The notes under the pieces: model-generated | Databases searched by the model: none | What the model saw: only the letters and a program-made list of their open reading frames with translations | Told to the model about the DNA's origin: nothing | Made by a program: the position numbers and the translations under genes | Shown here: positions 11,904 through 51,672 of the stretch, piece after piece | Numbering within the stretch: position 1 is the stretch's first letter | How the letters are laid out: each line of letters opens with the position of its first letter | Assembly (NCBI GenBank): GCA_965209035.1 | Contig: OZ242372.1 | Coordinates: 1,920,001-1,984,000 of the forward strand | Length of the DNA: 64,000 bases | Direction: 5' to 3' | Source of the DNA: Gammaproteobacteria bacterium | Lineage (GTDB): Bacteria; Pseudomonadota; Gammaproteobacteria; CBDBNL01; JAAOII01

Positions 11904-11955
11904 TTTTTTTATCATATCAATCAATATACTTATTACTTATTAAAAGAGAAACATT

Positions 11956-13107
11956 ATGCGTTTATGGGAAGACGAATCACCGGTGTCAAACAACGGTTCA
12001 AAATCTAAAGTGGAAAACCGCAAGGTTGCCACATTAAATAGCGAGAAGCCGGGTCCTGTGCCGGGTTTTACAAACATAAAAAAAGGAGGCGCCCGTGTTC
12101 GGGTGGATGACAAGGCGATCATTAATAGTCGCGCCGATGTCAATCAACTGGTACCTATTAAATATAAATGGGCATGGGACAAGTATTTGTCGGGCTGTGC
12201 CAATCATTGGATGCCCACGGAGGTTAGCATGGCGAAGGATGTATATACTTGGAAGGCGCCGAACGAATTGAGTGACGACGAGCGACTGATGCTAAAGCGC
12301 AATCTCGGTTTTTTTGCTTCCAGTGAATCTTTGGTTGCCAATAATATTGTTTTTGCCGTTTACCGTCATTTGACAAACCCCGAATGCCGCCAATATCTGT
12401 TACGGCAGGCATTTGAAGAAGCAATTCATACGCATACTTTTCAATACATCGTGGAAAGCCTCGGCTTGGACGAGGGAGAAGTTTTTAACTTGTACCGGGA
12501 GGTGCCGAGTGTGCACAACAAGGCCGCATGGGCGTTGGATCATACCAAAGAATTGGAAGATCCGGATTTCCGTACAGGCACAGTTGAAAAGGATCGCCTG
12601 TTCGTCAAAAATCTTGTGGCACTTTATGTCTGCATGGAATCTCTTTGGTTTTATACGGGTTTTGCCCAGGTATTGTCTATGGGAAGAAGAAACAAAATGA
12701 CCGGAATTGCCGAACAGTATCAATACATCATGCGAGACGAATCGCTGCACTTTAATTTTGGCTTTGATGTGATCAATCAAATACGGGCGGAAAATCCCGG
12801 TCTTTGGGACGGTCCGTTTGAGAAGCGAGTCATTCAAATGATTCACGAAGCACTTGAATTGGAAATTGCGTATGCGCATGACACAATGCCGCGCGGTCTT
12901 TTTGGAATTAACGCCAATATGGTGGAAGACTACATGAAGTTCATCGCCAACCGCCGCCTTTCCCAACTGGGTCTGCCAAGCGAGTTTCCCGGTGTGACCA
13001 ATCCCTTCCCCTGGATGTCCGAGATGATCGATCTTGACAAGGAAAAGAATTTTTTTGAAACACGTGTTACGGACTATCAAACAGGCGGGCAGTTAAATTG
13101 GGATTAA
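11956..13107 (+). CDS. nrdB: Ribonucleotide reductase beta subunit, class Ic (R2c)-like
   Basis: Ferritin-like R2 with [15 protein letters not shown] and [10 protein letters not shown]; Glu at the first metal ligand and Phe at the radical-Tyr position. Confidence 0.95.
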
Positions 13108-13214: not shown

Positions 13215-14795
13215 ATGTTACGGGAGACTTCGGTCCGACAATTGGATGAGGTCACCCTGTGGGATCTGGTTATTATAGGAGGCGGTGCGGCCGGCTTGGG
13301 CAGTACTTTGGCGGCGGCGCAAAAAGGATACAAAACACTCCTTTTGGAAAAAGGAGGATTTGCCGGCGGAACTTCCGGTCGCAGCAGCAAAATGATTCAC
13401 GGCGGTGTCCGCTATCTCAAACAAGGGGATCTTGCTATGGTGCGTCTTTCTTTGCGCGAACGCGAGCATCTTTTGCGAACTGTGCCCGGATTGGTGAAAC
13501 GACAGGAGTTTGTGATCCCTGTTTACACTTATGCGGACGCCGTAGTTTACCGTGCCGGTATGCTTCTTTATGATCTTTTGGCGGGGAAGAGAGACAGTTA
13601 TTTTTTGAGTCCCCGCCGAGTAACCGAGGAACTGGACGGCATCAAGAGCCGCGCTCTTAAAGGCGGAGTCGTTTATGGCGACGGTGTCTTTGATGATACG
13701 CGTTTTGCCATTACACTGGGCTACGCGGCGGACAAAGCCGGTGCCACACTCATCAACCATGCTCCCGTGGTTGGGTTTGGCAAGAATGCGAAAGGTAAAA
13801 TCGCCTCGGTCCAATTTTTGGACAAGGAAACCGGGCGCGAGCATGAAGTGAAATGTCGTTGTGTCATTAATGCCTGCGGAACCTTTGCGGATAAAATTCG
13901 CATGACGGATAATCCGACCGCACCCGAACTACAAACCATTAGCCAAGGCAGTCATATTATCTTACCGCTTTCCTTTTTGGGAACGCGGCGCGTTACCCGG
14001 GGGATGATGGTTCCGAAAACCACGGACAACAGAGTTCTGTTTTGTTTGCCTTGGCATAACAAACTTCTGGTAGGCACCACGGATATTACGATATCCAACC
14101 CGAGTGATGCCCCTGTTCCCACGCATACCGAAGCGAATTTTATCTTACAAAATTGCGGCGCGTATCTTACCAAGCAACCGGATGAATCGGATATTCTCAG
14201 TGCCTTTGCGGGGCAACGCGCTCTGTGCGGCAAAGGTGCGGCAACAAAAGACATTAGCAGAGAATATCACCTGGATGTGTCCGCTTCCGGCTTGATCAGT
14301 ATTTTGGGAGGCAAGTGGACAACCTATCGTGTTACTGCCGCGGCTGCTGTCAACCGGGCGGCTTCTTTTTTGGGTAACAATAAGCAAGCCCGCGAGAAGG
14401 GCGGGGACCGGCATAACAACAGCCGCAATGGCCACCATGGCCCGGCTGCGGCATTTCTTGAATTGGAATGCCTGTCAAAAAAGGTGCATGCCGAGAACAA
14501 GGAATATGCCGAGCCCATTCATCCCAAACTTCCCTACAGCCGCGGCAATATAGTCTGTGCCTTACGCCATGAGATGGCAAGAAACCTCACGGATCTTTTG
14601 ACAAGACATACGCGCTCGGTGATGCTGGATCGTCTGAGCGCCTTGGAATGCGCTCCCTCCTTGGCGCATTTAATGGCAAAAGAAATGAAACGCGACGCGC
14701 GCTGGGAACAGCGGCAATTAAAAGAATTTTACAAAGCGGCGGAAGAATACCAATTTCCGCCCCAATCACCGCCGGGGCAACCGCCGGCAAAGTAA
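13215..14795 (+). CDS. glpD: FAD-dependent glycerol-3-phosphate dehydrogenase
   Basis: IGGGAAG, GTSGRSSKMIHGGVRYL, GGKWTTYR. Confidence 0.92.
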   Translation: MLRETSVRQLDEVTLWDLVIIGGGAAGLGSTLAAAQKGYKTLLLEKGGFAGGTSGRSSKMIHGGVRYLKQGDLAMVRLSLREREHLLRTVPGLVKRQEFVIPVYTYADAVVYRAGMLLYDLLAGKRDSYFLSPRRVTEELDGIKSRALKGGVVYGDGVFDDTRFAITLGYAADKAGATLINHAPVVGFGKNAKGKIASVQFLDKETGREHEVKCRCVINACGTFADKIRMTDNPTAPELQTISQGSHIILPLSFLGTRRVTRGMMVPKTTDNRVLFCLPWHNKLLVGTTDITISNPSDAPVPTHTEANFILQNCGAYLTKQPDESDILSAFAGQRALCGKGAATKDISREYHLDVSASGLISILGGKWTTYRVTAAAAVNRAASFLGNNKQAREKGGDRHNNSRNGHHGPAAAFLELECLSKKVHAENKEYAEPIHPKLPYSRGNIVCALRHEMARNLTDLLTRHTRSVMLDRLSALECAPSLAHLMAKEMKRDARWEQRQLKEFYKAAEEYQFPPQSPPGQPPAK

Positions 14796-16558: not shown

Positions 16559-18049
16559 ATGACAAAAAAAATATATCATCATATTAATGGTGCCGAGCAT
16601 CGGGGGACATCCGCCGAATTCGGTAAGGTGTATCGGCCCGCCACCGGAGAAGTCGGCGGCGAGGTTGCTATTGCCAATAAAGCGGATGTGGAAAGTGCCA
16701 TAGCTGCCGCAACAGCGGCTTTTCCGGCCTGGCGCGCCACCACACCGATTAAAAGATCGCGCATCTTGTTTAAGTTCAAACATCTGCTGGATAAGCATTC
16801 CGGCACCCTTGCCCGATTAGTTTCGGAAGAACACGGCAAGGTTCTAAACGACGCCAAGGGCTCGGTCACTCGCGGGATCGAAGTCGTGGAGTTTGCTTGC
16901 GGAATACCGCAGTTGTTGAAAGGCGAATATTCGGAAGATGCCGGCACCGGCATAGATGTAACATCTGTGCGGCAGCCCATCGGCGTATGCGGCGGCATCA
17001 CGCCGTTTAATTTTCCGGCAATGGTCCCGCTTTGGATGTTTCCCATGGCAGTCGCCTGCGGGAATACCTTTGTCCTCAAGCCGTCGGAAAAGGATCCTTC
17101 TTGCTCCAACTTTCTTGCCGAACTGGTGATGGACGCCGGCTTACCCCCCGGCGTTCTGAATGTGGTGCACGGAACCAAAGAAGCGGTGGATACCATCCTG
17201 AATGATGCGCGCGTCAAGGCGGTTTCGTTTGTCGGTTCCACGCCGATTGCTCGTTACATTTATGAGACGGCCGCCCGCAACGGCAAGCGTGTTCAAGCAC
17301 TTGCCGGGGCAAAAAATCATATGTTGGTCATGCCCGATGCGGATATGGACATCGCCACGGCGGCCGCTTTGGGTGCCGGCTACGGCTCCGCGGGCGAAAG
17401 ATGTATGGCAATTTCCGTTGTTGTTGCGGTGGGAGATAAAACCGCCGATGACTTCATAGCAAAAATCAAGCCCAAGGTGGAAACATTAAAGATTGGCAAC
17501 AAAGAAGATGACGATATGGGGCCGCTGGTTACCGCCGACCATCTTGCCAAGGTCAAAAGTTATGTGGATCTCGGTGTTGAAGAAGGAGCGGAATTGGTCG
17601 CGGACGGGAGAGGTTTTTCGCTTCCCGGCCATGAAAAAGGGTTCTTTCTTGGCGGTTGCCTGTTTGACAAGGTTAAGCCGGATATGCGCATTTACAAAGA
17701 AGAAATTTTTGGTCCTGTGTTGTCCGTAGTGCGGGTCCCGGACTACGAGACAGCCGTCAAACTGGTTGATGAGCATGAGTTTGGCAACGGCACCGCGATC
17801 TTCACCCGAGATGGCGGACTGGCGCGCGATTTTGCCTATCGTGTTCAGATCGGTATGGTGGGCATCAATGTCCCCATTCCTGTGCCGATTGCCTTCCATA
17901 GTTTCGGCGGTTGGAAAAGTTCTCTGTTCGGCGATATGCACGCCTACGGCCCCGAGGCGGTGCGGTTTTATACCAAACTCAAAGCGATTACATCCCGTTG
18001 GCCCAAAGAATCCATTAATCCGGAATTCGTCATGCCGACAATGCGGTAA
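16559..18049 (+). CDS. mmsA: CoA-acylating methylmalonate-semialdehyde dehydrogenase
   Basis: ITPFNFPAMVPLWMFP, KPSEKDP, GAKNH, GERCMA, INVPIPVP. Confidence 0.95.
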   Translation: MTKKIYHHINGAEHRGTSAEFGKVYRPATGEVGGEVAIANKADVESAIAAATAAFPAWRATTPIKRSRILFKFKHLLDKHSGTLARLVSEEHGKVLNDAKGSVTRGIEVVEFACGIPQLLKGEYSEDAGTGIDVTSVRQPIGVCGGITPFNFPAMVPLWMFPMAVACGNTFVLKPSEKDPSCSNFLAELVMDAGLPPGVLNVVHGTKEAVDTILNDARVKAVSFVGSTPIARYIYETAARNGKRVQALAGAKNHMLVMPDADMDIATAAALGAGYGSAGERCMAISVVVAVGDKTADDFIAKIKPKVETLKIGNKEDDDMGPLVTADHLAKVKSYVDLGVEEGAELVADGRGFSLPGHEKGFFLGGCLFDKVKPDMRIYKEEIFGPVLSVVRVPDYETAVKLVDEHEFGNGTAIFTRDGGLARDFAYRVQIGMVGINVPIPVPIAFHSFGGWKSSLFGDMHAYGPEAVRFYTKLKAITSRWPKESINPEFVMPTMR

Positions 18050-18315: not shown

Positions 18316-19449
18316 TTAAGAACGCTCCGCCAAAGTAACATAAGCCCGTTGCGGCGGCCCCACATAGTCCGCATTGGGTCGAATTAATCTGTTATCCTTG
18401 CGTTGTTCCATAACATGCGCCGCCCAGCCGGACATGCGGGAACACACGAACAACGGAGTAAACAACGAAGTGTCTATACCCAGATAATGATAGGCGGAGG
18501 CACTGTAAAAGTCCAAATTGGGGAACAGCTTCTTTTCGTCCCACATCACTTGCTCAATAGATTCCGATATTTTGTAAAGAAGATCGTCTTTGTTATTTTG
18601 GGCAAGTTTCTGTGACCAGGATTTAATCACCTCGTTGCGCGGGTCGGAAATACTATACACCGCATGGCCAAATCCCATGATCTTTTCCTTGCGTTGCAAC
18701 TTGCCGCGCACCCCGTCGGCTGCCTCGTCCGGTGTCTTGTAAGCACTGATCAAAGCAAATGCTTCCTCGTTGGCACCGCCGTGTAGTGGGCCGCGCAGGG
18801 CGCCTATCCCGCCGGTGATGCACGAATAGATATCCGCCAGTGTTGCCGCAATCACCCGAGCGGTAAATGTGGAAGCATTGAATTCGTGCTCGGCATAAAG
18901 GATCAGAGAAACATCCATCGCCCTGATACGTAGTTCCGAAGGAGACTCATCGCCAAGCATAGTCAGTATGTGGCCGGCCAGACTGCTCGCCGAGCTTTCG
19001 GTATCCGTTCTCCGGCCTTCCCGGACATAACGAAACCAGTATGTCATCATACCCGGAAAGGTGGCGAGTAGCCTTTTGGCAATGCGCATTTGATCCGCCC
19101 GGGTTTCTTCTTTTTCCAGGGTCCCCAAAACGGAACAGCCGGTTCGCATAACATCCATCGGATGGGCATCCGCCGGAATGGCTTCCAGAACTGTCCGGAG
19201 TTCCCGCGGCAACTTCCGCAATTTTTGTAGTTCCGAGGCATAGGCACGGAGTTGAGTTTCCGTAGGCAACTCGCCGTGCAGCAGAAGATAAGACACTTCT
19301 TCATAACCGGATTTTTCGGCAAGTTCCAAAATGTCGTAACCATAGTAGGTTAACCCTTTTCCTTCAATGCCGCAGGTGCATATCGCGGTTTGGCCTGCGG
19401 TAATGCCGCGCAGCCCGCGGCCGTCCTGTGATTTTTTAACTTCGTTCAT
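18316..19449 (-). CDS. prpC: 2-methylcitrate synthase
   Basis: YAEHEFNASTF, GPLHGGANE, MGFGHAVY, FPNLDF; adjacent to prpB. Confidence 0.95.
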   Translation of the reverse strand: MNEVKKSQDGRGLRGITAGQTAICTCGIEGKGLTYYGYDILELAEKSGYEEVSYLLLHGELPTETQLRAYASELQKLRKLPRELRTVLEAIPADAHPMDVMRTGCSVLGTLEKEETRADQMRIAKRLLATFPGMMTYWFRYVREGRRTDTESSASSLAGHILTMLGDESPSELRIRAMDVSLILYAEHEFNASTFTARVIAATLADIYSCITGGIGALRGPLHGGANEEAFALISAYKTPDEAADGVRGKLQRKEKIMGFGHAVYSISDPRNEVIKSWSQKLAQNNKDDLLYKISESIEQVMWDEKKLFPNLDFYSASAYHYLGIDTSLFTPLFVCSRMSGWAAHVMEQRKDNRLIRPNADYVGPPQRAYVTLAERS

Positions 19450-19485
19450 AATTGTAATATTTGGTAGTATGTATTAATAATCTGT

Positions 19486-20382
19486 TTATTTATTCCGTTC
19501 GGTGTCTTCTTGCTTGCCGGCAAAAAGAGAGTCCAGTTTTTTTTCATAAGAATAATAATCCAACACTTCGTAAAGTTCCTCCCGGGTTTGCATACTGTCC
19601 AGAACATCTTTTTGTGTTCCTTGTTCGGCAAGAGTCGCATACGCCATTTCGGCGGCACGGCTCATAGCCCGAAATGCCGACAAAGGATACAACGCCAAGG
19701 AAACGCCCGCCGCCCGCAACTCGTCCAAAGTCCACAAGGGGGTCTTGCCAAACTCGGTAATATTGGCGAGGATCGGCAGACCGGTCGCCCGGGCAAACTC
19801 CCGATACTGACCGAGGTCTTCCGCCGCCTCGGCAAAAATCATATCCGCGCCGGCGTCGCGATAAGCAACCGCTCTTGCCAAAGCGGCTTCCAATCCTTCG
19901 TTCGCCAAGGCATCTGTGCGCGCCATGATCACAAACTCGCTGTTTTGTCTGGCGTCCGCGGCCGCCTTGATCCGATCCGCCATTTCTTCGGTATGCACCA
20001 GCATCTTGGAAGGCCTGTGTCCGCATCGTTTTTGCCCGACTTGATCTTCCAGGTGCATACCGGCAACGCCGGCCCGTTCCAGTTCTTTGACAGTGCGGGC
20101 AATGTTGAATGCGCCTCCCCAGCCCGTATCCGCATCCGCCAATAGCGGCAGATTGACCCGTCCGGTAATGCGTGCCGCATCTTCCGCGACATCCGCAAGC
20201 GCGGTAATCCCCAGATCCGGCAGACCAAAAGACGCATTTGCCACACCCGCACCCGAAAGATAAATTGCCTTGAAGCCGGCTCTTTGGGCAAGAAGGGCAC
20301 TGTATGCATTGATGGCCCCGACCACCCGCAAGGGTGTTTCGGTTTTTAATGCGGTCCGCAGACTTGTTTCTTTGGTTAGCAT
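19486..20382 (-). CDS. prpB: 2-methylisocitrate lyase
   Basis: [35 protein letters not shown]. Confidence 0.96.
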
Positions 20383-20845
20383 ATTATTATTTTACCTTAT
20401 TTTATAAACCCCTTAAACTTGGCGCGGTGACCTGCCGGCTTCAAGTTAGTGATTCGTTAATAGTTGCACCTCAAAGAGTATCTTTAAAAAGAATTAAATT
20501 GCAAATCCGGCATCATTAACGGATCTTTTCCAAACTCCGATCATGCAAAACGGTTCAAGCCCGGACTGCCTCAAAACAAGAACCGCCCCCGGATATTAAC
20601 CAAGTTCGGGGAGTGTTTGTCTTAAGCAAACAATAAAAAAGGGAATTATATACTTGACAACTATTGAAAGGACACTTTTTGATTTCCCGGCCCTCAATAC
20701 TTCCGCCAAAGAATTGGCTGATTCCTAATCCGGCAAAGGATTGGGAAATCTTTTGATTTTGTAAAAGAGATGCCCGGTTAACCGGGTTTGTTAATTAAGA
20801 AGATAAAATTCGCTTTGTGACACGCAGCCCCGCGCTGCTTGATAT

Positions 20846-23602
20846 CTAAGACGATTTGCTGTTTGTGGCTGCGGCGGGCGGCGGGTTGAGAAGTTTTGGG
20901 AGGTCCTTGCGCAGGATCTTACCGACCGGCGATTTGGGAAGGACATCCGCAAACACGATGCGGTCGGGGATCTTGTAAGCGGTCAGCGAACCCCGGCAGT
21001 GTTTCAGCAGAGCCTCTGCGGTGCATTCCTCACCCTTCTTTGGAACAATAAAAGCGACAATCTCTTCGTCATCCTGCTCGTTCTTGATCCCGATACAACC
21101 GCTTTCGGCAACGGCGGGGTGTTTGTCCAGCACTTTTTCTATTTCGCTCGGATACACATTAAAGCCCGAAACAAGGATCACATCCTTCGCCCTGTCCACC
21201 AGATAGATGTAGCCCTTGTCGTCCATATAGCCGATGTCGCCGGTATTCAGCCATCCGTCCGTGCTCAGATCCTTTGCGGTCGCTTCGGGGTTCTCCCAAT
21301 AGCCCGCCATCACCTGCGGACCGCGCACAAACAACAGCCCCACGTTACCGGTTGATACGGGAGTAAGAGTTTTCTCGTCCAGGATAACGGCGAGAGTGGA
21401 CGGCACAGGTAAACCAATGCTGCCGTTGAATTCTTTTTGGTCGTAAGGATTGATCGTAATCACAGGCGATGCCTCGGTCAGACCATAGCCTTCTTTTAGC
21501 AGAACCCCGGTTGCCTTTTTCCAGTCGGCGGCAACCTTCGGATGCACCGCCATGCCGCCGCCGAGGGCGAGTATGAGTTTGCTAAAATCCAAAGTGGCAA
21601 ATTGCGGATGCGCCAGCATCGCTTTGAACAGCGTATTAACGCCGTCTATGCCGTGAAAGGTGTATTTTTTCATCGTCTTGATCAGCCCGTTGATGTCGCG
21701 CGGATTTGCCACCAAGACATTGTGCGCGCCTATGTGAAAAAAGAAGATACCGTTTACGGTGAGCGCGAAAATATGATACAACGGCAGGGCGGTCAGAGTC
21801 ACTCTTTGCTCCTCGGTGGAATCGCAGAAGTTGCGGGATACATGCGCGTAGCACTGGGCGACATTGGCGACCATGTTCCGATGGGTGAGGACAACCGCCT
21901 TGGGTTCGCCCGTGGTGCCGCCGGTAAACTGCAGAAATGCCATATCCTCCGCTGCGATATGCGGGTGATAAAAAGAGCATTTGGCGCCTTGCCGCAGGGC
22001 AGTGCGAAATCCGATGCCGGGCGGACGGCCGAACACAGGTTGCTTGCCTTTCAAGCTCAACACAAGATGGATGAGAACTCTTTTGAGCGGCGAAAGCATA
22101 TCCCCCAGACCGGTAACGATGAGATGTTGCGGGACGAGTTCCTTGGGGCAGGCATTAACTATCTTGAGTGCGCCGCTCCAAACGATCAACACTTTGGGGC
22201 GGGAGATACGCAGAATGGTGGTTAATTCTTCCGCCGTATATAGCGGGTTAATATTGACTACCGCGCCGCCGGCCGCCAAAGCGGCATAAACACTTAAAAG
22301 ATACTGACTGCAGTTCGGCATCATAATGCCAACGCGATCGCCTTTCTTGAGCTGCGAATGTGTCTGCAGCCATGCGGCCAGATGATTGTAGTGTCGGTGA
22401 ACCTGCGTATAGGTTGTCTTGCAACCAAACTCTTCGCATGCCACCCGTTCCGTATTTTCGGCACAGGCGATTTCAACAAGTTCCGCCAGGTTACGCCGAA
22501 CTTCCGTATTGGCAAACGGCGGCGTATCCGGCGGATAGTTGTGCCGCCAGTAGGGTTCCACCCGAAGATCCATAATTCGGGTGCCAGTCGCGATTTGCGG
22601 CTGCTCCTTGCCGGCGATCAGCCGTCTTGCAAAATCGTTGAATACCCTGTCCATAGCGCGCAAATAATTTTCTGTCAGTTCTATCAGGTTCCCAACATTT
22701 TCTTCGGTCGCCAGATCAATGGTATCGGTTTTCTCGTCCGGCAATATGGGGTCAAGCCGCAGATAGCCTTCGGGACTATCGTGAAAGATGGCTTTCATTT
22801 GCTCGTGTCCCTGAATCACGCCGATATCACTCATCAGTTCCACCAAGGGTGCGGCCCATTCCAGTTTCCCCCATTTCTTAATTTCTTTTGGCTCATATTG
22901 TTCCCGATAGAACCCGCCGCCGAGAGACAGAACATTCAAGTGCTTGGCGGATGCGTCCGGAAACAGTCGTCTGATTTCGGCATATGCCAGAAGTGCCGGG
23001 TTACGGGAATAGATGCCGCCGTCCACAAACAAGTATTCTTTCTTGGCAATGCTGGAAATTTCCGCGGGCGGAAAATAAGTCGGCGCACTGGAGATAGCCC
23101 GACACAGATCGCGCATGTAAAAGTTTTCTGCCGGGTTATGCCGGGCGCGATACTGCCGAAACAAAAAACATTCGTTGCCAAGCATATCATAGGCGGTGCT
23201 CAAATAGGGCTTGATGAGTTGGCTTAGTTTGACATCACCGCAATGTTTTTGAAAAACCTTTTCTATGGGTTCGCCCGAGTATTTGGGGCTTGTGATACGA
23301 TGTCCCCTGAGTGCCCTTTGCACTTTATTCAGAGCGAAGGCAATCCCGCCGCTTTCTATGTAAATCTCTTCGGTTTGTTTCGCCGAATGGCACGGCGAGA
23401 TCCCGTCTTTTTGCGGCATCAGGGCAAGGCTGCCGATTAGGCCGCCGCCGGACGCCCCTACAATAAAATCAAAATAGTCGGCAATACGCGCTTCGGGGTT
23501 GCCGGATAGTTCTTGAAGTCTTTCTTCCAAACGCACCAATACCCGCGCCGCAATAACACCGCGGATCCCGCCGCCGTCTATGGCAAGGATATTGCGTATC
23601 AC
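20846..23602 (-). CDS. Fusion of an N-terminal patatin-like phospholipase and a C-terminal long-chain fatty-acid-CoA ligase (FadD-like)
   Basis: First ~330 aa: DGGGIRG, GASGG (GxSxG), SSAPTYF, DGG. Remainder: FTGGTTGEPK, EGYGLTEASP, WLNTGDIG, SGFNVYP, LPKSPVGKILR. Single uninterrupted 918-aa ORF. Confidence 0.9.
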   Translation of the reverse strand: MIRNILAIDGGGIRGVIAARVLVRLEERLQELSGNPEARIADYFDFIVGASGGGLIGSLALMPQKDGISPCHSAKQTEEIYIESGGIAFALNKVQRALRGHRITSPKYSGEPIEKVFQKHCGDVKLSQLIKPYLSTAYDMLGNECFLFRQYRARHNPAENFYMRDLCRAISSAPTYFPPAEISSIAKKEYLFVDGGIYSRNPALLAYAEIRRLFPDASAKHLNVLSLGGGFYREQYEPKEIKKWGKLEWAAPLVELMSDIGVIQGHEQMKAIFHDSPEGYLRLDPILPDEKTDTIDLATEENVGNLIELTENYLRAMDRVFNDFARRLIAGKEQPQIATGTRIMDLRVEPYWRHNYPPDTPPFANTEVRRNLAELVEIACAENTERVACEEFGCKTTYTQVHRHYNHLAAWLQTHSQLKKGDRVGIMMPNCSQYLLSVYAALAAGGAVVNINPLYTAEELTTILRISRPKVLIVWSGALKIVNACPKELVPQHLIVTGLGDMLSPLKRVLIHLVLSLKGKQPVFGRPPGIGFRTALRQGAKCSFYHPHIAAEDMAFLQFTGGTTGEPKAVVLTHRNMVANVAQCYAHVSRNFCDSTEEQRVTLTALPLYHIFALTVNGIFFFHIGAHNVLVANPRDINGLIKTMKKYTFHGIDGVNTLFKAMLAHPQFATLDFSKLILALGGGMAVHPKVAADWKKATGVLLKEGYGLTEASPVITINPYDQKEFNGSIGLPVPSTLAVILDEKTLTPVSTGNVGLLFVRGPQVMAGYWENPEATAKDLSTDGWLNTGDIGYMDDKGYIYLVDRAKDVILVSGFNVYPSEIEKVLDKHPAVAESGCIGIKNEQDDEEIVAFIVPKKGEECTAEALLKHCRGSLTAYKIPDRIVFADVLPKSPVGKILRKDLPKLLNPPPAAATNSKSS

Positions 23603-24774
23603 ACTCTCTCAAAAATACCGGCGGCGCCCATCCCCGTGCCGATACACATTGTGACCATCCCGTAACGCAGTTTTTGCCGCTTCATCCCATGCAACAGGGT
23701 GGCGGTGCGGATTGCTCCGGTCGCCCCCAAAGGATGCCCCAACGCGATGGCACCGCCAAGCGGGTTGACAAGCGTGCGTTCCAGTTTCAATTCGTTGATC
23801 ACCGCAAGCGTCTGTGCGGCAAAAGCCTCGTTCAATTCTATCCATTGCAGATCTGCGATTTTCAGGTTGCTTTGTTGCAGTGCGCGCGGAATTGCCTCTA
23901 CGGGACCTATCCCCATGATAGCGGGCGGCACACCCGCCACCGCATAGCCGACAAACCGTGCCAGCGGCTCCGCCCCCGTTCGTTTGACAGTTTCCGCATC
24001 CGCCAGCACAGCCAGGCCCGCCCCGTCGCTCACCTGCGAACTGCTACCCGCGGTCACAGTGCCGTCTTTGGCAAATGCCGGTTTCAATCGAGCAAGGGCC
24101 TCGGCCGAGGTGTCGCGCCTGGGACCTTCGTCCCGCGTAACAGTCCGTGGCTTGTTCACTATTTTGTTGCCTTCAAGCAACCGACGGGTGGTCTTAATGG
24201 GCAGGATCTCCGCATCAAAATGGCCCGCTGCCGCCGCCGCACAGGCACGCCGATGACTTTCCAACGCATAGGCATCTTGTTCCTCCCGCCCGACGCCATA
24301 CTGCCGTGCCACATTTTCCGCGGTGATGCCCATCCCATAGGCGATGGCAACATCTTCGTCCTCAAAGAGTTTCGGGTTGAATGCCGGCTTGTTGCCGATC
24401 ATCGGCACCATGCTCATACTCTCCAGTCCGCCGGCAAGAATCAGTTTTGACTTGCCCGTGGCGATGCGATCGGCCGCGACCGCGATGGCTTGCAAGCCGG
24501 ACGAGCAGAGTCGGTTCACCGTCATCGCCGGCACGCTCTGCGGCAACCCCCCCAACAAGGAGCAGATGCGCGCCACATTAAAAGCCTGTTCGCTTTCCGG
24601 CAGGGCGCAGCCCAAAACAACATCGTCAACGGTCTCCGGCTCCAGTTTGGGATGCCGCCGCATCACTTCTTTAATCAAGCGCGCGCACAGGTCATCGCTT
24701 CTGGTATGGGCAAAGACCCCGCGCGCCTTGCCCACGGGCGTGCGCAGTGCGTCAAGGATAAATACTTCGTTCAT
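23599..24774 (-). CDS. fadA: Acetyl-CoA C-acyltransferase (3-ketoacyl-CoA thiolase)
   Basis: NRLCSSG, NEAFA, GHPLGATG, CIGTGMG; overlaps the start of the downstream fusion gene. Confidence 0.94.
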   Translation of the reverse strand: MNEVFILDALRTPVGKARGVFAHTRSDDLCARLIKEVMRRHPKLEPETVDDVVLGCALPESEQAFNVARICSLLGGLPQSVPAMTVNRLCSSGLQAIAVAADRIATGKSKLILAGGLESMSMVPMIGNKPAFNPKLFEDEDVAIAYGMGITAENVARQYGVGREEQDAYALESHRRACAAAAAGHFDAEILPIKTTRRLLEGNKIVNKPRTVTRDEGPRRDTSAEALARLKPAFAKDGTVTAGSSSQVSDGAGLAVLADAETVKRTGAEPLARFVGYAVAGVPPAIMGIGPVEAIPRALQQSNLKIADLQWIELNEAFAAQTLAVINELKLERTLVNPLGGAIALGHPLGATGAIRTATLLHGMKRQKLRYGMVTMCIGTGMGAAGIFERV

Positions 24775-24819: not shown

Positions 24820-27258
24820 TTAGTTTCTAAGCGGCTTACCGGTCTTCAAAATATGTTCTATGCGTTTTTGCGACAGGCTCGTCTTAAGCAGACGCAAGAA
24901 CCCCTCGCGTTCCAGTTGCAGAAGGTATGCGTCGCTCGCCGTTTGGTCGGCATCGGTTTCCCCGCCGCAAAGAACATTGGCGATTTCGGCGGCACAGAAA
25001 TAATCGTGTTCGGATATAAAGTTGCCGGCGCGCAAATTGGTAAGCTGTGCGAGAAAATTACCTTTGCCCGGCCTGCCGGCAATCTTAATATCATTGCGCC
25101 GGTACGGCGGCCGATAGCTGCCGCGCATCAATTCCAGGGCGGAGCTGCGCGCCACATAAAGCAATTCCTGCGGGTTGGCGATTACTTTATCCGCCGCGCG
25201 CAGATACCCCATTCGCCGAGCATCGTCCGCACCGGATGCAACCTTGGCGAGAGCGATCTGCTCATAAAACTTTGCCAGAAACGGAAAAAGCGGGGTCTCG
25301 CCCGCGCACTCTTCGGCACGGCGCGCCATTTCCTTGCTGCCGCCGCCGGCCGGCAGGACGCCGACACCGATTTCAACCAAGCCAATAAAACTGTTCGTCG
25401 TTGCCACCACCCGATCGCAGTGCAACAACAGTTCGCAGCCGCCGCCAAGTGCCAAGCCGTCAACCGCCGCCACCACCGGAATGTCGCCGTGTTTGAACGA
25501 CATGCAAATGTTCTGCAATCTTTGGATCACCTCCCGTATGGGCGGCAACTTTCCGAGTTTCGGCAGTTTCGGATTGAGGGCCTCAAATGCCCGCATTTTA
25601 ATGTCCGTTAGCATCCCGCTTTGTTCGTAAGCGCCGAGTTTGGCACTCGCCAAAATCTGATACAAATTGGCGCCCGCACAAAAGGGGGCTTCTTCTTGCC
25701 AAAGAATGAGCGCGCCATATTCCGCGGTCGCCTTTGCCCAAACGGTTTCAAGATCTTTAAGAAGTTCGTAAGAAATCGTATGCATCTTGGTTTTGAAGTT
25801 AACCGCCAGAATTTCATCGCCCAGGTCGGTCGCCCGCAACCATTCCGTTTCCTCAACAACCTTTAACTGCGGGATCTTTTCGGCGGACATCACCAAAGGT
25901 GCCAGGTCGGTCGGCTGGTTTTTGGTTGGCAGGTATTCCTTGGCGGCCGGAGACCAGGCACCCTTGTTATTGTAGAAGCCGTCCGGCGGAGTGGGCGGCA
26001 ATTTCGCATCGCTCATCGCCCGCCCTTCTCTAATGTCTTCTTCAATCAGAGCGGTCAGGGACTTGCCGCCGGCAGACTGCCACAAGGAAAAGATACCGTC
26101 CTTCCAGCCGAAGCCGTGCCGCATGGCAAGATCCGCAGCGCGCGCCGTCTCCGCCAGTTCGGGCAGATGCGTCAGGGCATAATGAAACTGATCGCGATGA
26201 ACGGCCCACAAAAACTGACAGTGGGGGTCTTTAGATTCCCGCAGCTTCGGCAAGGCGGCGGCGATGCCATCGCCGAGCAGTCGCCTGCACTCTTTGGAAA
26301 TTTTCTTGTCCGCGGTACGATAGTCGTTTGTCTCGGTATCAAATACCAGAATATCCTTGCCGACCTTTTTGTAAATGCCTTTGCCGGTTTTTTGCCCGAG
26401 ACTGCCGGCGGCTACCATCTTGGTCATCCACTCCGGCGGGGCGAAGTGTTGCCGCCACGGATCCTGTTTCAATACTTCCGTCAGATTGTTCATCACCGCG
26501 ATGATGATATCCAACCCGACCAGATCCGCCGTGCGAAAGCAAGCACTCTTGGCACGGTTAATGCGTGTCCCGCAAAGAGCGTCCGCCGTGTCAAAACCGA
26601 TGCCCAAACGCCGGGCATGGAAAAGGGCGGCCGCCATACCAAACACACCGAGGCGATTGGCAATAAACCCGGGCGAGTCCTTCGCCCGCACCGTCTGCTT
26701 GCCCGCAACGGAAGTGAGAAATCGTTCCAACTGCGCCGCCGTTTCCTTGTCCGCCTTTTCGTGCATGATCAATTCCGTCAGTGGCATATAGCGCGGCGGA
26801 TTAAAGAAATGCATACCAAAAAATCGTTGCCGCAGACTTGCCGGCATCCACTCACTCATCCGCGTGATACTCAAAGCCGAGGTGTTGGAAGCCAGAATGG
26901 CGTTGGAATTCAAATGCGGGATGACCTTGCCGTAAACCGACTTTTTAATGTCAAGGTTTTCGCTGACCGCTTCTATGACCAGATGGCGATCTTTCAGAAG
27001 CGGCAGATTATCCTTGTAAGAGGCGGGGCGAATACGCCCCCCCCAATTCGGCAGTGCCAAGGCCGGCGGTTTGAGTGACTTGAGATTCTTAATCGCCTTT
27101 TGGGCCGTCGCGTTTGGATCTTCTGCCTCTGTCAGACCGAACAGGACAACATCCAGCCCGCAGTTGGTCAGGTGAGCGGCAATCTGCGCGCCCATAGTGC
27201 CGGTGCCAAGCACAGCAATGTGCTTAAATTCCCGATACAAGTGCGTTTCTCTCGTCAT
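24820..27258 (-). CDS. 3-hydroxyacyl-CoA dehydrogenase / enoyl-CoA hydratase (FadN-type domain order)
   Basis: GTGTMG, SNTS, HFFNPPRYM, PGFIANR, C-terminal crotonase GGGCE...VEIGVG, ends TGKPLRN. Confidence 0.92.
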   Translation of the reverse strand: MTRETHLYREFKHIAVLGTGTMGAQIAAHLTNCGLDVVLFGLTEAEDPNATAQKAIKNLKSLKPPALALPNWGGRIRPASYKDNLPLLKDRHLVIEAVSENLDIKKSVYGKVIPHLNSNAILASNTSALSITRMSEWMPASLRQRFFGMHFFNPPRYMPLTELIMHEKADKETAAQLERFLTSVAGKQTVRAKDSPGFIANRLGVFGMAAALFHARRLGIGFDTADALCGTRINRAKSACFRTADLVGLDIIIAVMNNLTEVLKQDPWRQHFAPPEWMTKMVAAGSLGQKTGKGIYKKVGKDILVFDTETNDYRTADKKISKECRRLLGDGIAAALPKLRESKDPHCQFLWAVHRDQFHYALTHLPELAETARAADLAMRHGFGWKDGIFSLWQSAGGKSLTALIEEDIREGRAMSDAKLPPTPPDGFYNNKGAWSPAAKEYLPTKNQPTDLAPLVMSAEKIPQLKVVEETEWLRATDLGDEILAVNFKTKMHTISYELLKDLETVWAKATAEYGALILWQEEAPFCAGANLYQILASAKLGAYEQSGMLTDIKMRAFEALNPKLPKLGKLPPIREVIQRLQNICMSFKHGDIPVVAAVDGLALGGGCELLLHCDRVVATTNSFIGLVEIGVGVLPAGGGSKEMARRAEECAGETPLFPFLAKFYEQIALAKVASGADDARRMGYLRAADKVIANPQELLYVARSSALELMRGSYRPPYRRNDIKIAGRPGKGNFLAQLTNLRAGNFISEHDYFCAAEIANVLCGGETDADQTASDAYLLQLEREGFLRLLKTSLSQKRIEHILKTGKPLRN

Positions 27259-27327: not shown

Positions 27328-27753
27328 TTAAAGAATCTTGAATTCCCCGTCCAGCACCCGCACACTGCCGGAAAACTTGCGTTGCAGATACACCCGCACC
27401 AAAGTGCGCAGCAAATAAACGCGAAGGGCGGGAACGAGCAACAAGAGACCGATACTGTCGGTAATGAATCCGGGCGTAATGAAAAGACAGCCGGCAACCA
27501 GTAACAGCAAACTGTGCCACAGGGCAAATGCGGGCAGCCGACCCGAGTGCAGTTCGCGATTTATCTTGATCCACAGGGTGACTCCCTGCCGTTTGATGAG
27601 CGACGCCCCGATGAAAGCGGTTAGGACAACCAGCAGGACGGTGGTCAAAGCACCAATCGCACCGCCGACCTCAATCAACAGATAGAGTTCCAAAATCGGA
27701 AAACCGATGAACAGCAAGAAGAGCCAAATCCGCATCACTCTTTTATTATACAA
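27328..27753 (-). CDS. fxsA: FxsA family membrane protein (true start probably 27735)
   Basis: PILELYLLIEVG...PGFITDSIG motif. Confidence 0.88.
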   Translation of the reverse strand: MYNKRVMRIWLFLLFIGFPILELYLLIEVGGAIGALTTVLLVVLTAFIGASLIKRQGVTLWIKINRELHSGRLPAFALWHSLLLLVAGCLFITPGFITDSIGLLLLVPALRVYLLRTLVRVYLQRKFSGSVRVLDGEFKIL

Positions 27754-27912: not shown

Positions 27913-28047
27913 CCTGCCGCGCGCTCATCTGCTTTTACCTGCCCGGGCGAGATGCCATACTCTCCCGAAATGCTTTGGTGCTTTCCGGCACACTTAACAA
28001 AGTTGCCTGTATTTAATGATGCCCCGCCGGAATTGTTTGGCTTAACC

Positions 28048-28431
28048 GGTGCGTTCAAGTGCGGCGACCAAATTGGCACAGGAATAACCTTCCTTTCGCG
28101 GATGCATGCTTGCCTAAAGGGTGCTTTCAAGTGTGGCGATCAAATTGGCACAGGAATAACCTTCCTTTCGCGGATGCATGCTTGCCTAAAGGGTGCTTTC
28201 AAGTGGGGCGATCAAATTGGCACAGGAATAACCTTCCTTTCGCGGATGCATGCTTGCCTAAAGGGTGCGTTCAAGTGGGGCGATCAAATTGGCACAGGAA
28301 TAACCTTCCTTTCGCGGATGCATGCTTGCCTAAAGGGTGCGTTCAAGTGGGGCGATCAAATTGGCACAGGAATAACCTTCCTTTCGCGGATGCATGCTTG
28401 CCTAAAGGGTGCTTCAAGTGGGGCGATCAAA
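28048..28431. repeat. Tandem array of five near-identical 72-bp units plus a partial sixth
   Basis: Units start at 28048, 28120, 28192, 28264, 28336 and (partial) 28408; unit GGTGCGTTCAAGTGGGGCGATCAAATTGGCACAGGAATAACCTTCCTTTCGCGGATGCATGCTTGCCTAAAG. Confidence 0.97.
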
Positions 28432-28598
28432 ATCACAACGATAAGCCAACGCTTCCGTGATGTGATGCTTTTCTGTGACTTCCTTGCCTTCCAAATCCGC
28501 CAGAGTGCGCGCCACCCGCAGCAAGCGATGATAACCGCGCATAGAAATCCCCAACTTGGTGCGCGCCATGTTTAGAATTTCCTTGCCCGCCTGGTCGG
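28413..28598 (-). repeat. 186-bp duplicate of the comM 3' end (copy of 28721-28906)
   Basis: Encodes the same C-terminus, AGKEILNMARTKLG...YRCDFDRPT*; 5 substitutions seen, 4 of them synonymous. Confidence 0.95.
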
Positions 28599-28721
28599 TC
28601 TTGCCTGCTGGGTGCTTTTCTTTTAAGGCGTGGCGATTAAGTGCGGCGTTCAAGTCACCAAAGAACTCTGCGACAAAGTATTAAAGCAGCGTTTTTAAGG
28701 TGCGACGATTAAGTGGGGCAT

Positions 28722-30230
28722 TCAAGTGGGGCGATCAAAATCGCAACGATAAGCCAACGCTTCCGTGATGTGATGCTTTTCTGTGACTTCCTTGCCTTCC
28801 AAATCCGCCAGAGTGCGCGCCACCCGCAGCAGGCGATGATAACCGCGCATAGAAATCCCCAACTTGGTGCGTGCCATGTTCAGAATTTCCTTGCCCGCCT
28901 TGTCGGGCGCGCAGAACTCTTGCGTTGTGTCCGCATCCAAAAGTGCGTTCACCTTGCCGCAGCGTTTTGTCTGACGCGCGCGCGCCAGTTTCACCGCCGC
29001 CTGCGCCCGCTCGTGTTCCCGCCCGTCGCCGACAGTCTCGCTTTCCGCCACAGGCAGGTTTGCCACATGCACAATCAAGTCCAGCCTGTCCAACAGGGGA
29101 CCCGAAATTCTGGAACGATAATTTTCTATCTGCTGCGGCGAACATCGGCACTCCTTGTAAGGGTTGCCGAGCATCCCGCAGGGGCAGGGGTTCATCGCCG
29201 CCACCAACTGAAACCGGGCGGGAAATTGTGCGTTGCGGGCTGCCCGCGAAATGGTGATATTCCCGCTTTCCATTGGCTGACGCAAAACCTCCAACACCCG
29301 GCGCGGAAATTCCGGCAACTCATCCAAAAACAAAACACCCAGATGCGCCAAAGAAATCTCGCCCGGCATCGGCTTGCTGCCGCCGCCGACCAAAGAAATC
29401 GCCGAAGCCGTATGGTGCGGTGCGCGAAAAGGACGCAACCCCAAAGGAGGAATCTCTTCCTTGGCAACCAGCGAAAAAATCCCCGCCACCTCCAAGGAAT
29501 CCGCATGATTGAGCGGCGGCAACAGAGCCGGCAACCGACTGGCAAGCATCGTCTTACCGCTGCCCGGCGGACCAAACATCAAAATATTATGCCCGCCGGC
29601 GGCCGCCACCAACAGAGCCCGCTTGGCTTTCTGTTGCCCGCGCACACTGTCCAGTCGCGGTTCGCTACTCTTATTGGGCGGCTTCGGCGGCGGCAGATCC
29701 CCAACGGACGACAAGGGACGCACCCCGTTCAGATGTGCAGTCACCTGCGTCAGATGCTCGGCAACACAAACGGGCGTCGTTTTCAAAAGTACCGCAGCCG
29801 CCGCATTCCGCCTGCCGATAATCAAAGTGCGCTTTGCCCGCGCACAAGCCAACCCGGCGGGGATAACACCCCGCACCGGCAGGAGTTCGCCGTTGAGAGC
29901 CAGTTCCCCCAGAAACTCATAGTTCGCCAGGTCATCGGTTTTGATTTGGCGGGCAGCCGCCAGTATGCCCAGAGCAATCGCCAGATCCAGCCGCCCGCCG
30001 CTCTTCGGCAGGTCCGCCGGCGACAGATTGACCGTGATGTGCCGTGCCGGAAACACAAACCCACAATTAATGATCGCACTGCGCACCCTGGCGCGACTTT
30101 CGTTCACCGCTTTTTCCGGCAAACCCACAATATTGAAACGCGGCAACCCGGGCGAGAGATGTGCCTCCACCCGCACCAGCGGGGACGCCATGCCGTATTC
30201 GGCACGGGTCAGAACCGTTCCTAAGGACAC
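28722..30230 (-). CDS. comM: ComM / YifB Mg-chelatase-like AAA+ ATPase
   Basis: VGLPEKAVNESRARVRSA, GPPGSGKT, FRAPHH, LFLDELPEF, AAMNPCPCG, SGPLLDRLD. Confidence 0.96.
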   Translation of the reverse strand: MSLGTVLTRAEYGMASPLVRVEAHLSPGLPRFNIVGLPEKAVNESRARVRSAIINCGFVFPARHITVNLSPADLPKSGGRLDLAIALGILAAARQIKTDDLANYEFLGELALNGELLPVRGVIPAGLACARAKRTLIIGRRNAAAAVLLKTTPVCVAEHLTQVTAHLNGVRPLSSVGDLPPPKPPNKSSEPRLDSVRGQQKAKRALLVAAAGGHNILMFGPPGSGKTMLASRLPALLPPLNHADSLEVAGIFSLVAKEEIPPLGLRPFRAPHHTASAISLVGGGSKPMPGEISLAHLGVLFLDELPEFPRRVLEVLRQPMESGNITISRAARNAQFPARFQLVAAMNPCPCGMLGNPYKECRCSPQQIENYRSRISGPLLDRLDLIVHVANLPVAESETVGDGREHERAQAAVKLARARQTKRCGKVNALLDADTTQEFCAPDKAGKEILNMARTKLGISMRGYHRLLRVARTLADLEGKEVTEKHHITEALAYRCDFDRPT

Positions 30231-30408: not shown

Positions 30409-33400
30409 ATGAAAAAGATGTTTGAAGATTTTTCTCACTTATATAGCGTCTCTAAAACCTTAAGATTTGGATTAAGACCCCACGGCGAGACAGCGGATAA
30501 AATAGCAGATTTTAAGAATCAAGCAATTAAATCCGTTATTGCAAAGGATAAGATCCTTGCCGATAATTACAAAAAGGCGAAAAAGATTATTGACCAACTT
30601 CATAAAGAATTCATAGACAAGGTGTTGTCAAGATCGGATGTATTGTTGGCTTCGGATATTCAAAGATATTACAAGGTGTATATGGAATTGAAAAAACTTT
30701 ATGGCAGGGGTCAGGAGGATAAACAAGCCAAAAGAAACAATTTATGGAAAACAAGAATCGCTTTGGAAAAAGAACTTAGGGAAATTATTGCCCGTAAGTT
30801 TACAAGCGAGGATGACTATATAAAAACCATCAAGGAACAAAAAAAATTACCGGAACATGTTGTTAATTGGTTGAAGGAAAAAGCCCGAAAAGGGGAAATA
30901 AGCGATACCGAATATGAAGAAAACAAGGAATGTATAGAAAAGTTTAAAAACTTTACAACTTATTTTAGCGGGTTTGCAAAAAATCGGGACAATCTATATT
31001 CTAATAAAAATCAAGTTACGGCAATTTCAAACCGTATCATCAGTGAAAACCTGCCGCGTTTTTTGGATAATTGGCATGGCTATCAAAAATTGGATGCGGG
31101 GTTATTACAAAATCTAAAACAACATTCCATAGTTCTGCACAAACATTCTCTTTTACCCAAGGGCATGTCTTTGGAAGATTTTTTATGCCCTTCTTCTTTT
31201 GTGTGCTATTTGAATCAAAGGGGAATTGAAAAATACAACGCAGTGATCGGCGGTAAAACTTTGGAAGAGGGAAAAGAAAAAATTCAAGGAGTTAACGAAA
31301 TCATCAATCTTTATCGTCAGCAAAATGATATTAAAGCCAGAAGTTTACCGCGTATGAAAAAACTATACAATCAAATCCTTGCTGACAGGGAAAGTTTTTC
31401 ATTTTTGCCGGATCAATTTGAGAGTGATGCGGAATTATTTGAAACTCTTGGGGAGTACTATGCGGTGATTAATAATGCGGAGAAAGGGAAGAATAGTTTA
31501 CTGAAAAGAATAGAAGAAATTTTTACCTGTTTGAACTCGGACGAGATAGATGCGGAGCAATTTCATATTAGAGGATCAGAAGTTGCTGCAGTTAGCCGGA
31601 CAATTTTTGAGAGATGGGATCTTATAAATCTTGCCCTTGTAAATTATGTAAAGGATAAAGTATATCCGGATAGTCCCGGGAAAAAAGTCTCCGTATCTTT
31701 GGAAAAGAAAAGAGAAAAGTGGCTGAAGAAAGATACTTTTACTTTGACGGAACTGGAAGATGCCCTGGCATATCATCAGAATACGGAAACAGAAAAACTC
31801 CATACCCCCAATCAGATTTTGGAATATTTTCAAAAATGTGTTGTTCGTAGAAAATCAACTGTCCAAGGAGAGGAGGACAAAGAAGAGTTAATTTTTGCTA
31901 AAATACGAGCATCCTTTAAAGAAATAGAATCGTTTTCAGAAATATCCCCGGAACGCAACATGCCGGATCAAAAAGACAAGAAGGGGGGAGAAGGCTTTCG
32001 GCAAATACAAAAAATTAAAGAGTTTATGGACAGTGTTTTGACATTATTGCACTTTATGAAACCTTTATACCTTAGGGAAGGAAAGGATGGCAGCAATAAA
32101 ATCGGGGTGGAGAACTTGAATGATTTTTATATTGATTTTGAGAGTTGTTATGAGGAGTTAATGCCTGTTATTCGCTTATATAACAAGGTTCGCAGTCATC
32201 TGACTAAGAAGAGTAAAGAACAAGAAAAGTTTAAAATTAATTTTGATTGTTCAACCTTACTTGATGGTTGGGATGTCAATAAAGAAAGTGCCAATCAGGG
32301 GGTGATTTTAATCCGAAATTGCCCGGACGGAGAAAAGAAATTTTTCTTAGGCATCATTCATAAAACTCACAAGGATATTTTGAATTACGAATTGGATATG
32401 GATGACAAATTGGCAATACGGGCTGGTGGTAATAAAAAAGTTGATAAAAAGAAGAAACTAAAAGGAGAGATTGTATTGAAAAAAAGTGACCAGGGGGAGT
32501 GTTATCAAAAAATGGTATATAAGTTTCTTGCGGACCCTATAAAGATGCTTCCCAAAGTATTTTTTTCTAAAAAAAGGATGGATTATTTTGAACCCAGTCA
32601 AGAAATACAAGATATTAAGGAAGGGAAGAAATATCATGAAGATAAGGTAAACCGTGATAAATACATAGATTTTTTTAAGCAGTCTATTGAAAAACATTTG
32701 GATTGGAAAGAATTTAATTTTGCTTTTCGCCCCACAAAAGAATATGAAAGTATGGATGACTTTTACTCGAATGTCGCACGCCAAGGTTATAGCATCCGAT
32801 TTGATAACATTAAAGCCGAGTATATTGATAGGCTAGTCCAAGAGGGCAAGTTATTTTTATTTGAAATATATAACAAGGATTTTTCGCAACACAGTAAAGG
32901 CAGACCTAACTTGCATACGAGTTATTGGCGGCTTTTGTTTGATGAGAAAAATTTACAAAAAACTGTTCTTAAGTTAAATGGGCAGGCCGAGATGTTTTTT
33001 CGCTTCTTCTCTATCCCGGCCGAGAAGGCGATTCGCCATAACAAGAATCAACCCATTAAGAATAAAAACCCGCATAATTCCAAGAAGGTGAGTAAATTTT
33101 CCTACGATCTGGTTAAGGATAAGCGTTTTACCAAAGATGCCTTCCTTTTTCATGTACCGATTACTTTAAATTATGGGCTTCCAAAAGCGGCACCGCTTAA
33201 TCAAAAAGTGAATCTTCTCATAAAGAAAAATCAAGATGTTCGTATCATGGGAATTGACAGAGGCGAGCGTAACTTGCTTTATTATTCCATCATTGATGGG
33301 AAGGGCAAGATCATTGCTCAAGAGAGTTTAAATAAGATTACGAATTCATACCAAAACGGGAAGGATGCGAATAGAACTAATGTTGTTAATGATTATCATG

Positions 33401-34449: not shown

Positions 34450-34479
34450 GCATTACAACATAATTCACCGTAACTCCTG

Positions 34480-35037
34480 TTGGAAAGTTATATCCCCATA
34501 TCCTTTCTTAACGACTTCATTTTCTGTCCGCGTTCCATATATTTTCATCAACTATACGGAAATACCCAGACTCGTCTGTATCAAACCTCGGATCAGATAG
34601 ACGGCAAAACGGCGCACATTACGATTGACCAAAAACGATATTCTACTCGCCAAGATGTGATTCAAAGTTTGGAAATCTATTCTCAAAATTATCATCTGTG
34701 CGGAAAGATTGATATTTACTTCCAAAAACAAAAATTGCTGGTAGAGAGAAAAAAGAAAATAAAGGTCATATATGACGGTTATGTTTTACAACTTTACGCA
34801 CAATATTACGCTATGGTAGAGATGGGGTATGAAGTCGAACGGCTGCAACTATATAGCACGGACACAAATAAAAGTTATCCGATTCCTCTTCCGGCACAAG
34901 ACCCCGATATGTGCTTGAAGTTTGAAGAAACAATAAAAGGGTTAAACCAATTTAATTTGGAAAAATATTTTGTTCCCAACCCTGAAAAATGTGCTCGTTG
35001 TATTTACCGCAACCTTTGTGACAGAGCCGCATGCTAA
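34480..35037 (+). CDS. cas4: CRISPR-associated Cas4 (V-A type)
   Basis: LNDFIFCPRSIY, GKID, ERKKKIK, QLYAQY, C-terminal CARCIYRNLC Fe-S cysteines. Confidence 0.95.
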   Translation: MESYIPISFLNDFIFCPRSIYFHQLYGNTQTRLYQTSDQIDGKTAHITIDQKRYSTRQDVIQSLEIYSQNYHLCGKIDIYFQKQKLLVERKKKIKVIYDGYVLQLYAQYYAMVEMGYEVERLQLYSTDTNKSYPIPLPAQDPDMCLKFEETIKGLNQFNLEKYFVPNPEKCARCIYRNLCDRAAC

Positions 35038-36002: not shown

Positions 36003-36003
36003 T

Positions 36004-36279: not shown

Positions 36280-36422
36280 GTTAATAGTAAAAAGCGTTTT
36301 GCAAACCCTCGTCTTAATGTTACAAATGGTGTTAAAGAAGCCCTTTATTTGCTTAAAAGGTAGTTTACGGGTGTGTTTGAAGGTAAAAATACCTATAATT
36401 GCTTTTATATTCGTGCCTACCT
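36280..36422 (+). promoter_or_regulatory. AT-rich CRISPR leader
   Basis: Non-coding segment between cas2 and the first repeat, with TATAAT near 36394; degenerate repeats lie at the far end of the array. Confidence 0.7.
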
Positions 36423-51620: not shown

Positions 51621-51672
51621 GACTTCAAAACAAACCGGGAACATCAATGATTAATTGTTACTATCACAGAGG

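Follow-up and report, generated by a model that had tools for sequence, protein, structure and literature searches.

A patatin-FadD fusion gene

We identified a gene that joins a patatin-type lipase module to a FadD-type acyl-CoA ligase module in a stretch of 64,000 nucleotides from a Gammaproteobacteria bacterium (contig OZ242372.1, positions 1,920,001 to 1,984,000; the whole stretch is referred to as the window). The gene follows genes for a FadN-type protein and the thiolase FadA (Table 1). A first-pass annotation of this DNA, made from the letters alone, had described one open reading frame (ORF) with an intact patatin domain and a complete ligase, and the domain and motif searches agree with this description. 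Pfam places Patatin at residues 6-206 (E = 2e-21), AMP-binding at 379-769 (E = 2e-83) and AMP-binding_C at 820-895, and these are the only Pfam families on the protein.

The N-terminal module scores 77.3 bits against PF01734 (gathering cut-off 27.7). Patatins are defined by a GGGxR oxyanion hole, a GxSxG serine and a DG aspartate (PMC10291501), present here as DGGGIRG (residues 9-15), G49-A-S51-G-G53 and D194-GG. Residues 1-338 of the structure model superpose on potato patatin (1oxw) with Z 43.5 and a root-mean-square deviation of 2.0 Å over 328 residues. The module shares this fold and the DGGGxRG, GxSxG, S(A/S)APTY and DGG motifs (as listed in PMC6162203) with potato patatin and the plant patatin-like phospholipases A. 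Unlike potato patatin, it is bacterial, is only 31% identical to it, and has a ligase attached.

The patatin fold and similarity to database models and structures are also features of CapV, the phospholipase of the cyclic oligonucleotide-based anti-phage signaling system (CBASS). PADLOC models for CBASS phospholipases match the protein (E = 9e-47), as do CapV structures (E = 3e-18), and it could in principle be a CapV-type defense enzyme gated via its ligase domain. We consider this highly improbable. The score against NF041079 is 134.8 (cut-off 200), potato patatin is closer by sequence than the CapV structures, no CD-NTase is encoded among the window ORFs scanned, and the gene sits in a metabolic operon with fadA and prpB as neighbors.

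The C-terminal module is a member of the ANL superfamily by its AMP-binding and AMP-binding_C domains and by its motifs, which we take to be the P-loop, GYGLTE, TGD, DR and the terminal Lys895 of the A10 motif. In the model, residues ~347-906 superpose on ANL ligases with Z up to 49. Like the proteobacterial FadD proteins (PRK08974, PRK07059), it gives a full-length profile match, has the core motifs, and branches among standalone proteobacterial FadD-like ligases. It differs from them in that it carries an N-terminal lipase, lies on longer branches and does not reach the equivalog cut-offs. By similarity and tree position, this half is thus FadD-type, without being a formal equivalog member.

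The AlphaFold2 model of all 918 residues, built from a 146-row alignment, has a mean predicted local distance difference test score of 93.7 and a predicted template modeling score of 0.88; an earlier run with an 8-sequence alignment (49.6 for the former) was set aside. In the model the two modules fold as a patatin and an ANL ligase. The high template modeling score over two large modules suggests that they have a defined relative position. Complex prediction with the halves as separate chains scored 0.00 in two runs (mark 0.32) in which the controls were not folded either, and so carries no weight for or against an interface. Internal translation restart at M344, an in-frame Met in the linker, was rejected: the residue is not conserved and there is no obvious ribosome-binding site.

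The first patatin strand stands at the very N-terminus, with no extension before it. No segment is hydrophobic enough to pass the scan threshold, and the protein is thus most likely cytoplasmic; its lipid substrate would therefore be imported or endogenous. The use of host lipids, raised as a possibility in the first-pass annotation, is thus unsupported. A related question is whether the protein could be a secreted effector acting on host membranes, in the manner of Rickettsia Pat1, or on host lipids outside the cell. Patatins of Rickettsia and of Wolbachia phage match at 25-30% identity, and rickettsial patatins are secreted during infection, with features of type IV substrates and not of the Sec route (PMC11077975). 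However, the gene is located in a housekeeping fad operon, the protein lacks a signal or hydrophobic segment, and its ligase requires ATP and CoA. In addition, among the GTDB loci listed, the nearest standalone relatives whose organism is named are from Bacteroidota, cyanobacteria and uncultured Gammaproteobacteria metagenome-assembled genomes (MAGs). We regard a role as an effector as very unlikely.

Distribution and conservation of the fusion

The first homologue search (282 matches, 8000 candidates) found all three domains in 8 of the 120 proteins listed, including that of the window. The other seven are independent full-length homologues, which align over 98-99% of the length at 48-65% identity. 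When the patatin part served as the query, P0125 was also found (33% identity over 909 aligned columns); NCBI lists it as an AMP-binding protein from a MAG of Methylacidiphilales. Among the best 150 of 9510 phmmer matches in 1.84 billion representatives, 18 proteins, selected for their length or rank, were scanned against Pfam, giving four more full fusions (P0180, P0182, P0185 and P0314). Half-by-half profiles over the 341 proteins collected yielded 13 full fusions including that of the window, to which the other twelve are 33-65% identical. A search with a profile of the 13 returned no further fusions.

In GTDB, one of the 80 loci listed (of 555 confirmed, from at least 599 pattern matches) carries the fusion. 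This locus, L001, is from a 'Portiera sp.' MAG labeled Gammaproteobacteria and has an unbroken fusion ORF of 913 amino acids that is almost the same as P0007. The remaining 79 loci encode standalone patatins and lack a fadD-like gene within the available flanks. The ESM Atlas returned single-domain clusters only, and plasmid and phage collections only patatins below 60% identity (25-35% in 15 of the 72 plasmid and all 7 phage records listed). The architecture is rare, but undercounted, because the homologue searches were word-limited and missed members (the patatin-part search missed two known ones, and two others did not list five distant ones) and because the GTDB listing covers 80 of the 555 confirmed loci. 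Every fusion with a named source comes from a MAG. The Methylacidiphilales assignment of P0125 (presumably Verrucomicrobiota) and the Gammaproteobacteria label of L001 imply either inter-phylum transfer or a binning error.

The fusion is real, and not an assembly error, given the independent full-length homologues and the same unbroken ORF in L001. An assembly artefact or chance read-through of two genes might have been suspected, as M344 sits at the expected start of a standalone FadD. However, the linker is free of stops, the two modules are also joined in the twelve other full-length fusions (33-65% identity) and in L001, the linker is 18 residues long in 9 of the 13 fusions, and M344 is not conserved. 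An artefact is thus refuted.

Catalytic residues are widely retained (Table 1). GGGxR is intact in 11 of the 13 fusions; one of the exceptions has Gln and the other is N-terminally incomplete. The window protein and 11 other fusions retain every catalytic motif of the ligase; in P0182, the P-loop is altered and the A10 Lys is missing.

The first-pass annotation knew of no characterized patatin-FadD fusion, and we found no description of one in the literature searched (titles and abstract openings), although supplementary domain tables, subscription journals or InterPro may hold one. The terms 'AMP-binding' and 'acyl-CoA' are absent from the main text, as available, of two papers on bacterial patatins (PMC11077975, PMC9226776). 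The fusion is old, rare and apparently undescribed, while both of its component domains are well known.

Evolution of the two halves

Between the window and L001, four-fold degenerate sites are saturated (0.23 and 0.27) whereas amino-acid identity is 45% for the patatin and 52% for the ligase half, which indicates that purifying selection has long acted on both. The ligase halves of the 13 fusions form one clade among 23 chosen standalone FadD-like proteins (support of 99 in the Shimodaira-Hasegawa-like approximate likelihood ratio test). The clade was recovered (100/99) under a mixture model with nine fusions and 16 standalone proteins, from which three near-copies and the long-branched P0182 had been dropped. 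It was unresolved in a FastTree analysis of 119 rows, and the long branches still call for caution. The patatin and ligase trees give the same grouping for a core of eight fusions, and divergence in one half correlates with that in the other (Pearson 0.91 over 78 pairs, which are not independent). Because the ligase halves form one clade, the fusion probably had a single origin. Recent acquisition of the patatin half was considered and is unsupported: GC content at third codon positions is 0.56 in this half and 0.64 in the ligase half, compared with 0.52-0.68 in neighboring genes.

The patatin halves form a clade with moderate support (86/81, 46 rows) only together with three proteins with a decayed ligase and six short patatins. 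Forcing the short patatins out of the clade was rejected (approximately unbiased test, p = 6e-7, 28 rows). Two of these, L029 and L038 from Gammaproteobacteria MAGs, are genuinely standalone, each with eamA on one side and nrdAB on the other, and no ligase remnant was found after either; others, such as P0191, may be fragments. The proteins with a decayed ligase (P0183, P0192 and P0205) have intact patatin motifs, but have lost the P-loop, TGD and A10 Lys motifs from an adenylation remnant of ~350-450 residues, possibly a pseudo-enzyme regulatory module. The simplest history consistent with the trees would be a single fusion that spread among lineages, after which the ligase half was lost or decayed repeatedly. 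The apparent retention of the lipase with loss of the ligase is a biased picture, because the searches that found these forms began from the patatin half.

The remnants raise the question of whether the ligase half serves mainly to tether or regulate a potentially harmful phospholipase, through membrane targeting or sensing of ATP, AMP or acyl-CoA, with lipid scavenging being secondary. Retention of a motif-less adenylation domain beside an intact patatin in the three proteins, and the altered motifs of P0182, fit such a role. It is nonetheless quite unlikely for the window protein, as the ligase catalytic motifs are all kept in it and in 11 other fusions, and the close standalone relatives L029 and L038 do without such a cap.

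The standalone patatins nearest to the fusion clade lie immediately upstream of nrdAB (positions 9983-14792 in L029 and 3604-8421 in L038). The window has nrdAB at 8955-13107, ~8 kb from the fusion gene; this may be coincidence.

Gene neighborhood

The fusion gene begins with a GTG codon inside the end of fadA, so that its start and the fadA stop overlap by 4 nt (23599-23602). A gap of 45 bp separates fadA from the FadN-type gene upstream of it, in line with the order given in the first-pass annotation. In L001, the fusion ORF begins 66 bp after a fadA that is 62% identical to that of the window, so that the fusion gene follows fadA in both of the contexts that could be read. The L001 sequence ends 198 bp after the fusion gene. 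Scans of the window for promoters and terminators gave results at chance level, and there was no match to Rfam.

The first-pass annotation had also proposed that the fusion gene forms a compact lipid-scavenging module with glpD, prpBC and mmsA. This is not supported. The genes glpD and mmsA run the other way, on the plus strand, and are separated by aroE and a CDP-alcohol transferase gene; prpB is separated from the fusion gene, and fadE, prpD and acnD were not found in the window. Lipases, beta-oxidation and the methylcitrate cycle co-occur in SAR86 genomes (PMC3358033); the idea of a lipid-scavenging module is therefore reasonable, though conjectural. A gene for an MlaA-like phospholipid-binding lipoprotein (46366-47313, below the cut-off) could be relevant to lipid import.

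Table 1. Features of the fusion gene and its surroundings (positions in the window)
Feature	Position	Strand	Remarks
glpD	13215-14795	+	opposite strand to fusion
mmsA	16559-18049	+	opposite strand to fusion
prpB and prpC (methylcitrate cycle)	18316..20382	-	PRK11320 and PRK12351, above cut-off; prpB 463 bp downstream of fusion; neighbors, link conjectural
Two hairpins 3' of fusion stop, possible terminator	20722..20786	-	weak: 16 terminator-like sites vs 15.6 in shuffles
Patatin-FadD fusion gene	20846..23602	-	918 aa, GTG start, ORF unbroken for 918 codons
Predicted FadD-type acyl-CoA ligase module, aa 352-905	20888..22549	-	PF00501 and PF13193; fold matches ANL ligases
Lys895 of adenylation step (A10 motif)	20918..20920	-	Lys in 12/13 fusions; Arg in P0182
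ATP/AMP-binding P-loop, aa 560-568	21899..21925	-	intact in 12/13 fusions
Linker, aa 334-351	22550..22603	-	stop-free; contains in-frame ATG (M344)
Predicted patatin module, aa 1-333	22604..23602	-	plant patatin-like lipid acyl hydrolase fold; PF01734; 1oxw match E 1e-34
Catalytic Asp194 codon (DG motif)	23021..23023	-	Asp retained in 13/13 fusions
Catalytic Ser51 codon (GxSxG)	23450..23452	-	Ser retained in 13/13 fusions
fadA thiolase	23599..24774	-	PRK09052, 607 bits, above cut-off of 567
FadN-type 3-hydroxyacyl-CoA dehydrogenase / enoyl-CoA hydratase	24820..27258	-	3HCDH_N, 3HCDH and ECH domains
fxsA	27328..27753	-	69 bp upstream of fadN, same strand; operon membership uncertain

Other features of the window

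The window contains a type V-A CRISPR locus (30409-43783) with cas12a (1346 aa; 37% GC compared with ~50% in neighboring genes), cas4 and cas1. In its array, a 36-nt repeat occurs in 84 exact copies; the spacers are short (mostly 25-28 nt), and an IS481 element (40041-41108) interrupts the array. Six 72-nt tandem repeats lie within 27968-28906, followed by a 186-nt segment that duplicates the 3' end of a comM/yifB-like gene (28413-28598 and 28721-28906, 97% identical), possibly as an integration scar. A PglB-like oligosaccharyltransferase gene (459-2657, below the cut-off) suggests protein N-glycosylation. An orphan DNA-methyltransferase-like ORF at 51655-52878 has weak matches to PrmC and PglX.

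Proposed function

We favor, as probable, a two-step enzyme that converts lipids to acyl-CoA and feeds beta-oxidation. This is the best reading because the active sites are intact and conserved, both halves appear to be under purifying selection, and the gene follows fadA in the two contexts available. The enzyme would act in the cytoplasm, probably at the membrane surface. The Ser51-Asp194 dyad would cut acyl chains off glycerolipids, which could be phospholipids, lysolipids or neutral lipids taken up from outside or belonging to the cell itself, and the FadD module would use ATP and CoA to convert the freed fatty acid to acyl-CoA. This would then be oxidized by the co-transcribed FadN and FadA, with FadE encoded elsewhere. 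We infer both activities and their direction toward beta-oxidation from motifs and gene context, and further infer the substrate and a direct hand-over between the two sites. The first-pass suggestion that one enzyme releases fatty acids and activates them is thus carried forward, with the direct transfer as its more conjectural part.

Several findings weigh against this proposal. The operon encodes FadN, FadA and a ligase, but no acyl-CoA dehydrogenase (fadE) was found among the window ORFs scanned, so that the first-pass description as a beta-oxidation operon applies to those components and not to a complete pathway. Gene context could be read for only two of the fusions. The GASGG motif is peculiar to the window copy, and the other 12 fusions have GTSTG. 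The best NCBIfam match of the ligase half, PRK08974 (FadD), reaches 584 bits, below its cut-off of 884. Decay of the ligase in P0183, P0192 and P0205 and the nesting of the standalone L029 and L038 within the clade imply that coupling is dispensable in relatives. Moreover, patatin-fold enzymes are also reported as transacylases, acyltransferases and acyl-CoA thioesterases (PMC10291501, PMC6162203). If the patatin were a thioesterase, it would form a futile cycle with the ligase.

A role in lipid remodeling or recycling was also weighed. The patatin could transfer acyl groups to lysolipids or other acceptors, taking them from a lipid or from acyl-CoA made by the ligase. Alternatively, chains that have been freed could be re-activated for re-esterification. 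The protein would then be a functional analogue of Aas with a different acyltransferase fold. The absence of fadE from the operon would fit this, and transacylase or acyltransferase activity is reported for PNPLA2, 3, 4 and 9 (PMC10291501). Aas is a precedent in that an acyl-activating (adenylation) domain is joined in one chain to a domain that acylates lipids (PMC4666226). However, Aas re-acylates lysolipids, uses acyl-ACP (acyl carrier protein) and is paired with LplT, whereas the fusion has a Ser-Asp patatin, directly follows the degradative fadN-fadA (fadA also in L001) and is likely to deacylate. Pfam found no PlsC-type acyltransferase domain, no lplT-like neighbor was found, and the nearest solved relative, potato patatin, is a hydrolase. 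Remodeling is thus an unlikely role for this protein.

The two-step conversion to acyl-CoA has counterparts in known systems. In E. coli, this pair of reactions, deacylation followed by CoA activation, falls to two separate proteins, PldB and FadD (PMC4666226). Two uncharacterized proteins, P0093 and P0097 (~1350-1390 aa), also combine an esterase/lipase domain with an acyl-CoA ligase in one chain. They differ from the patatin fusions in having an alpha/beta-hydrolase fold, and P0093 has a ligase half that falls outside the fusion clade; this would be a second, apparently independent, lipase-ligase architecture. PldB is itself an alpha/beta hydrolase and not a patatin. In eukaryotes, patatin-type lipolysis followed by CoA activation for beta-oxidation involves separate proteins at lipid droplets or peroxisomes (ATGL and ACSL, SDP1 and LACS).

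Tentatively, and with considerable doubt, a fuller scenario can be sketched. A fixed interface would channel the fatty acid from the patatin to the adenylation pocket with none escaping, and lipolysis would be tied to ATP and CoA; the fusion would have spread between lineages from a single origin, with a dead ligase half sometimes kept as a regulator of the lipase.

Both chemistries are textbook reactions and the family is rare, which limits the importance of the finding. Lipolysis and fatty-acid activation are normally carried out by separate proteins, and direct transfer between such proteins is hard to test. An enzyme in one chain, with a confident model and relatives in which one half is lost or inactive, makes coupling and channeling testable. 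It is also a potential one-enzyme catalyst for producing acyl-CoA from lipids. If the proposed function is correct, the fusion would add a route by which lipids enter bacterial beta-oxidation as acyl-CoA.

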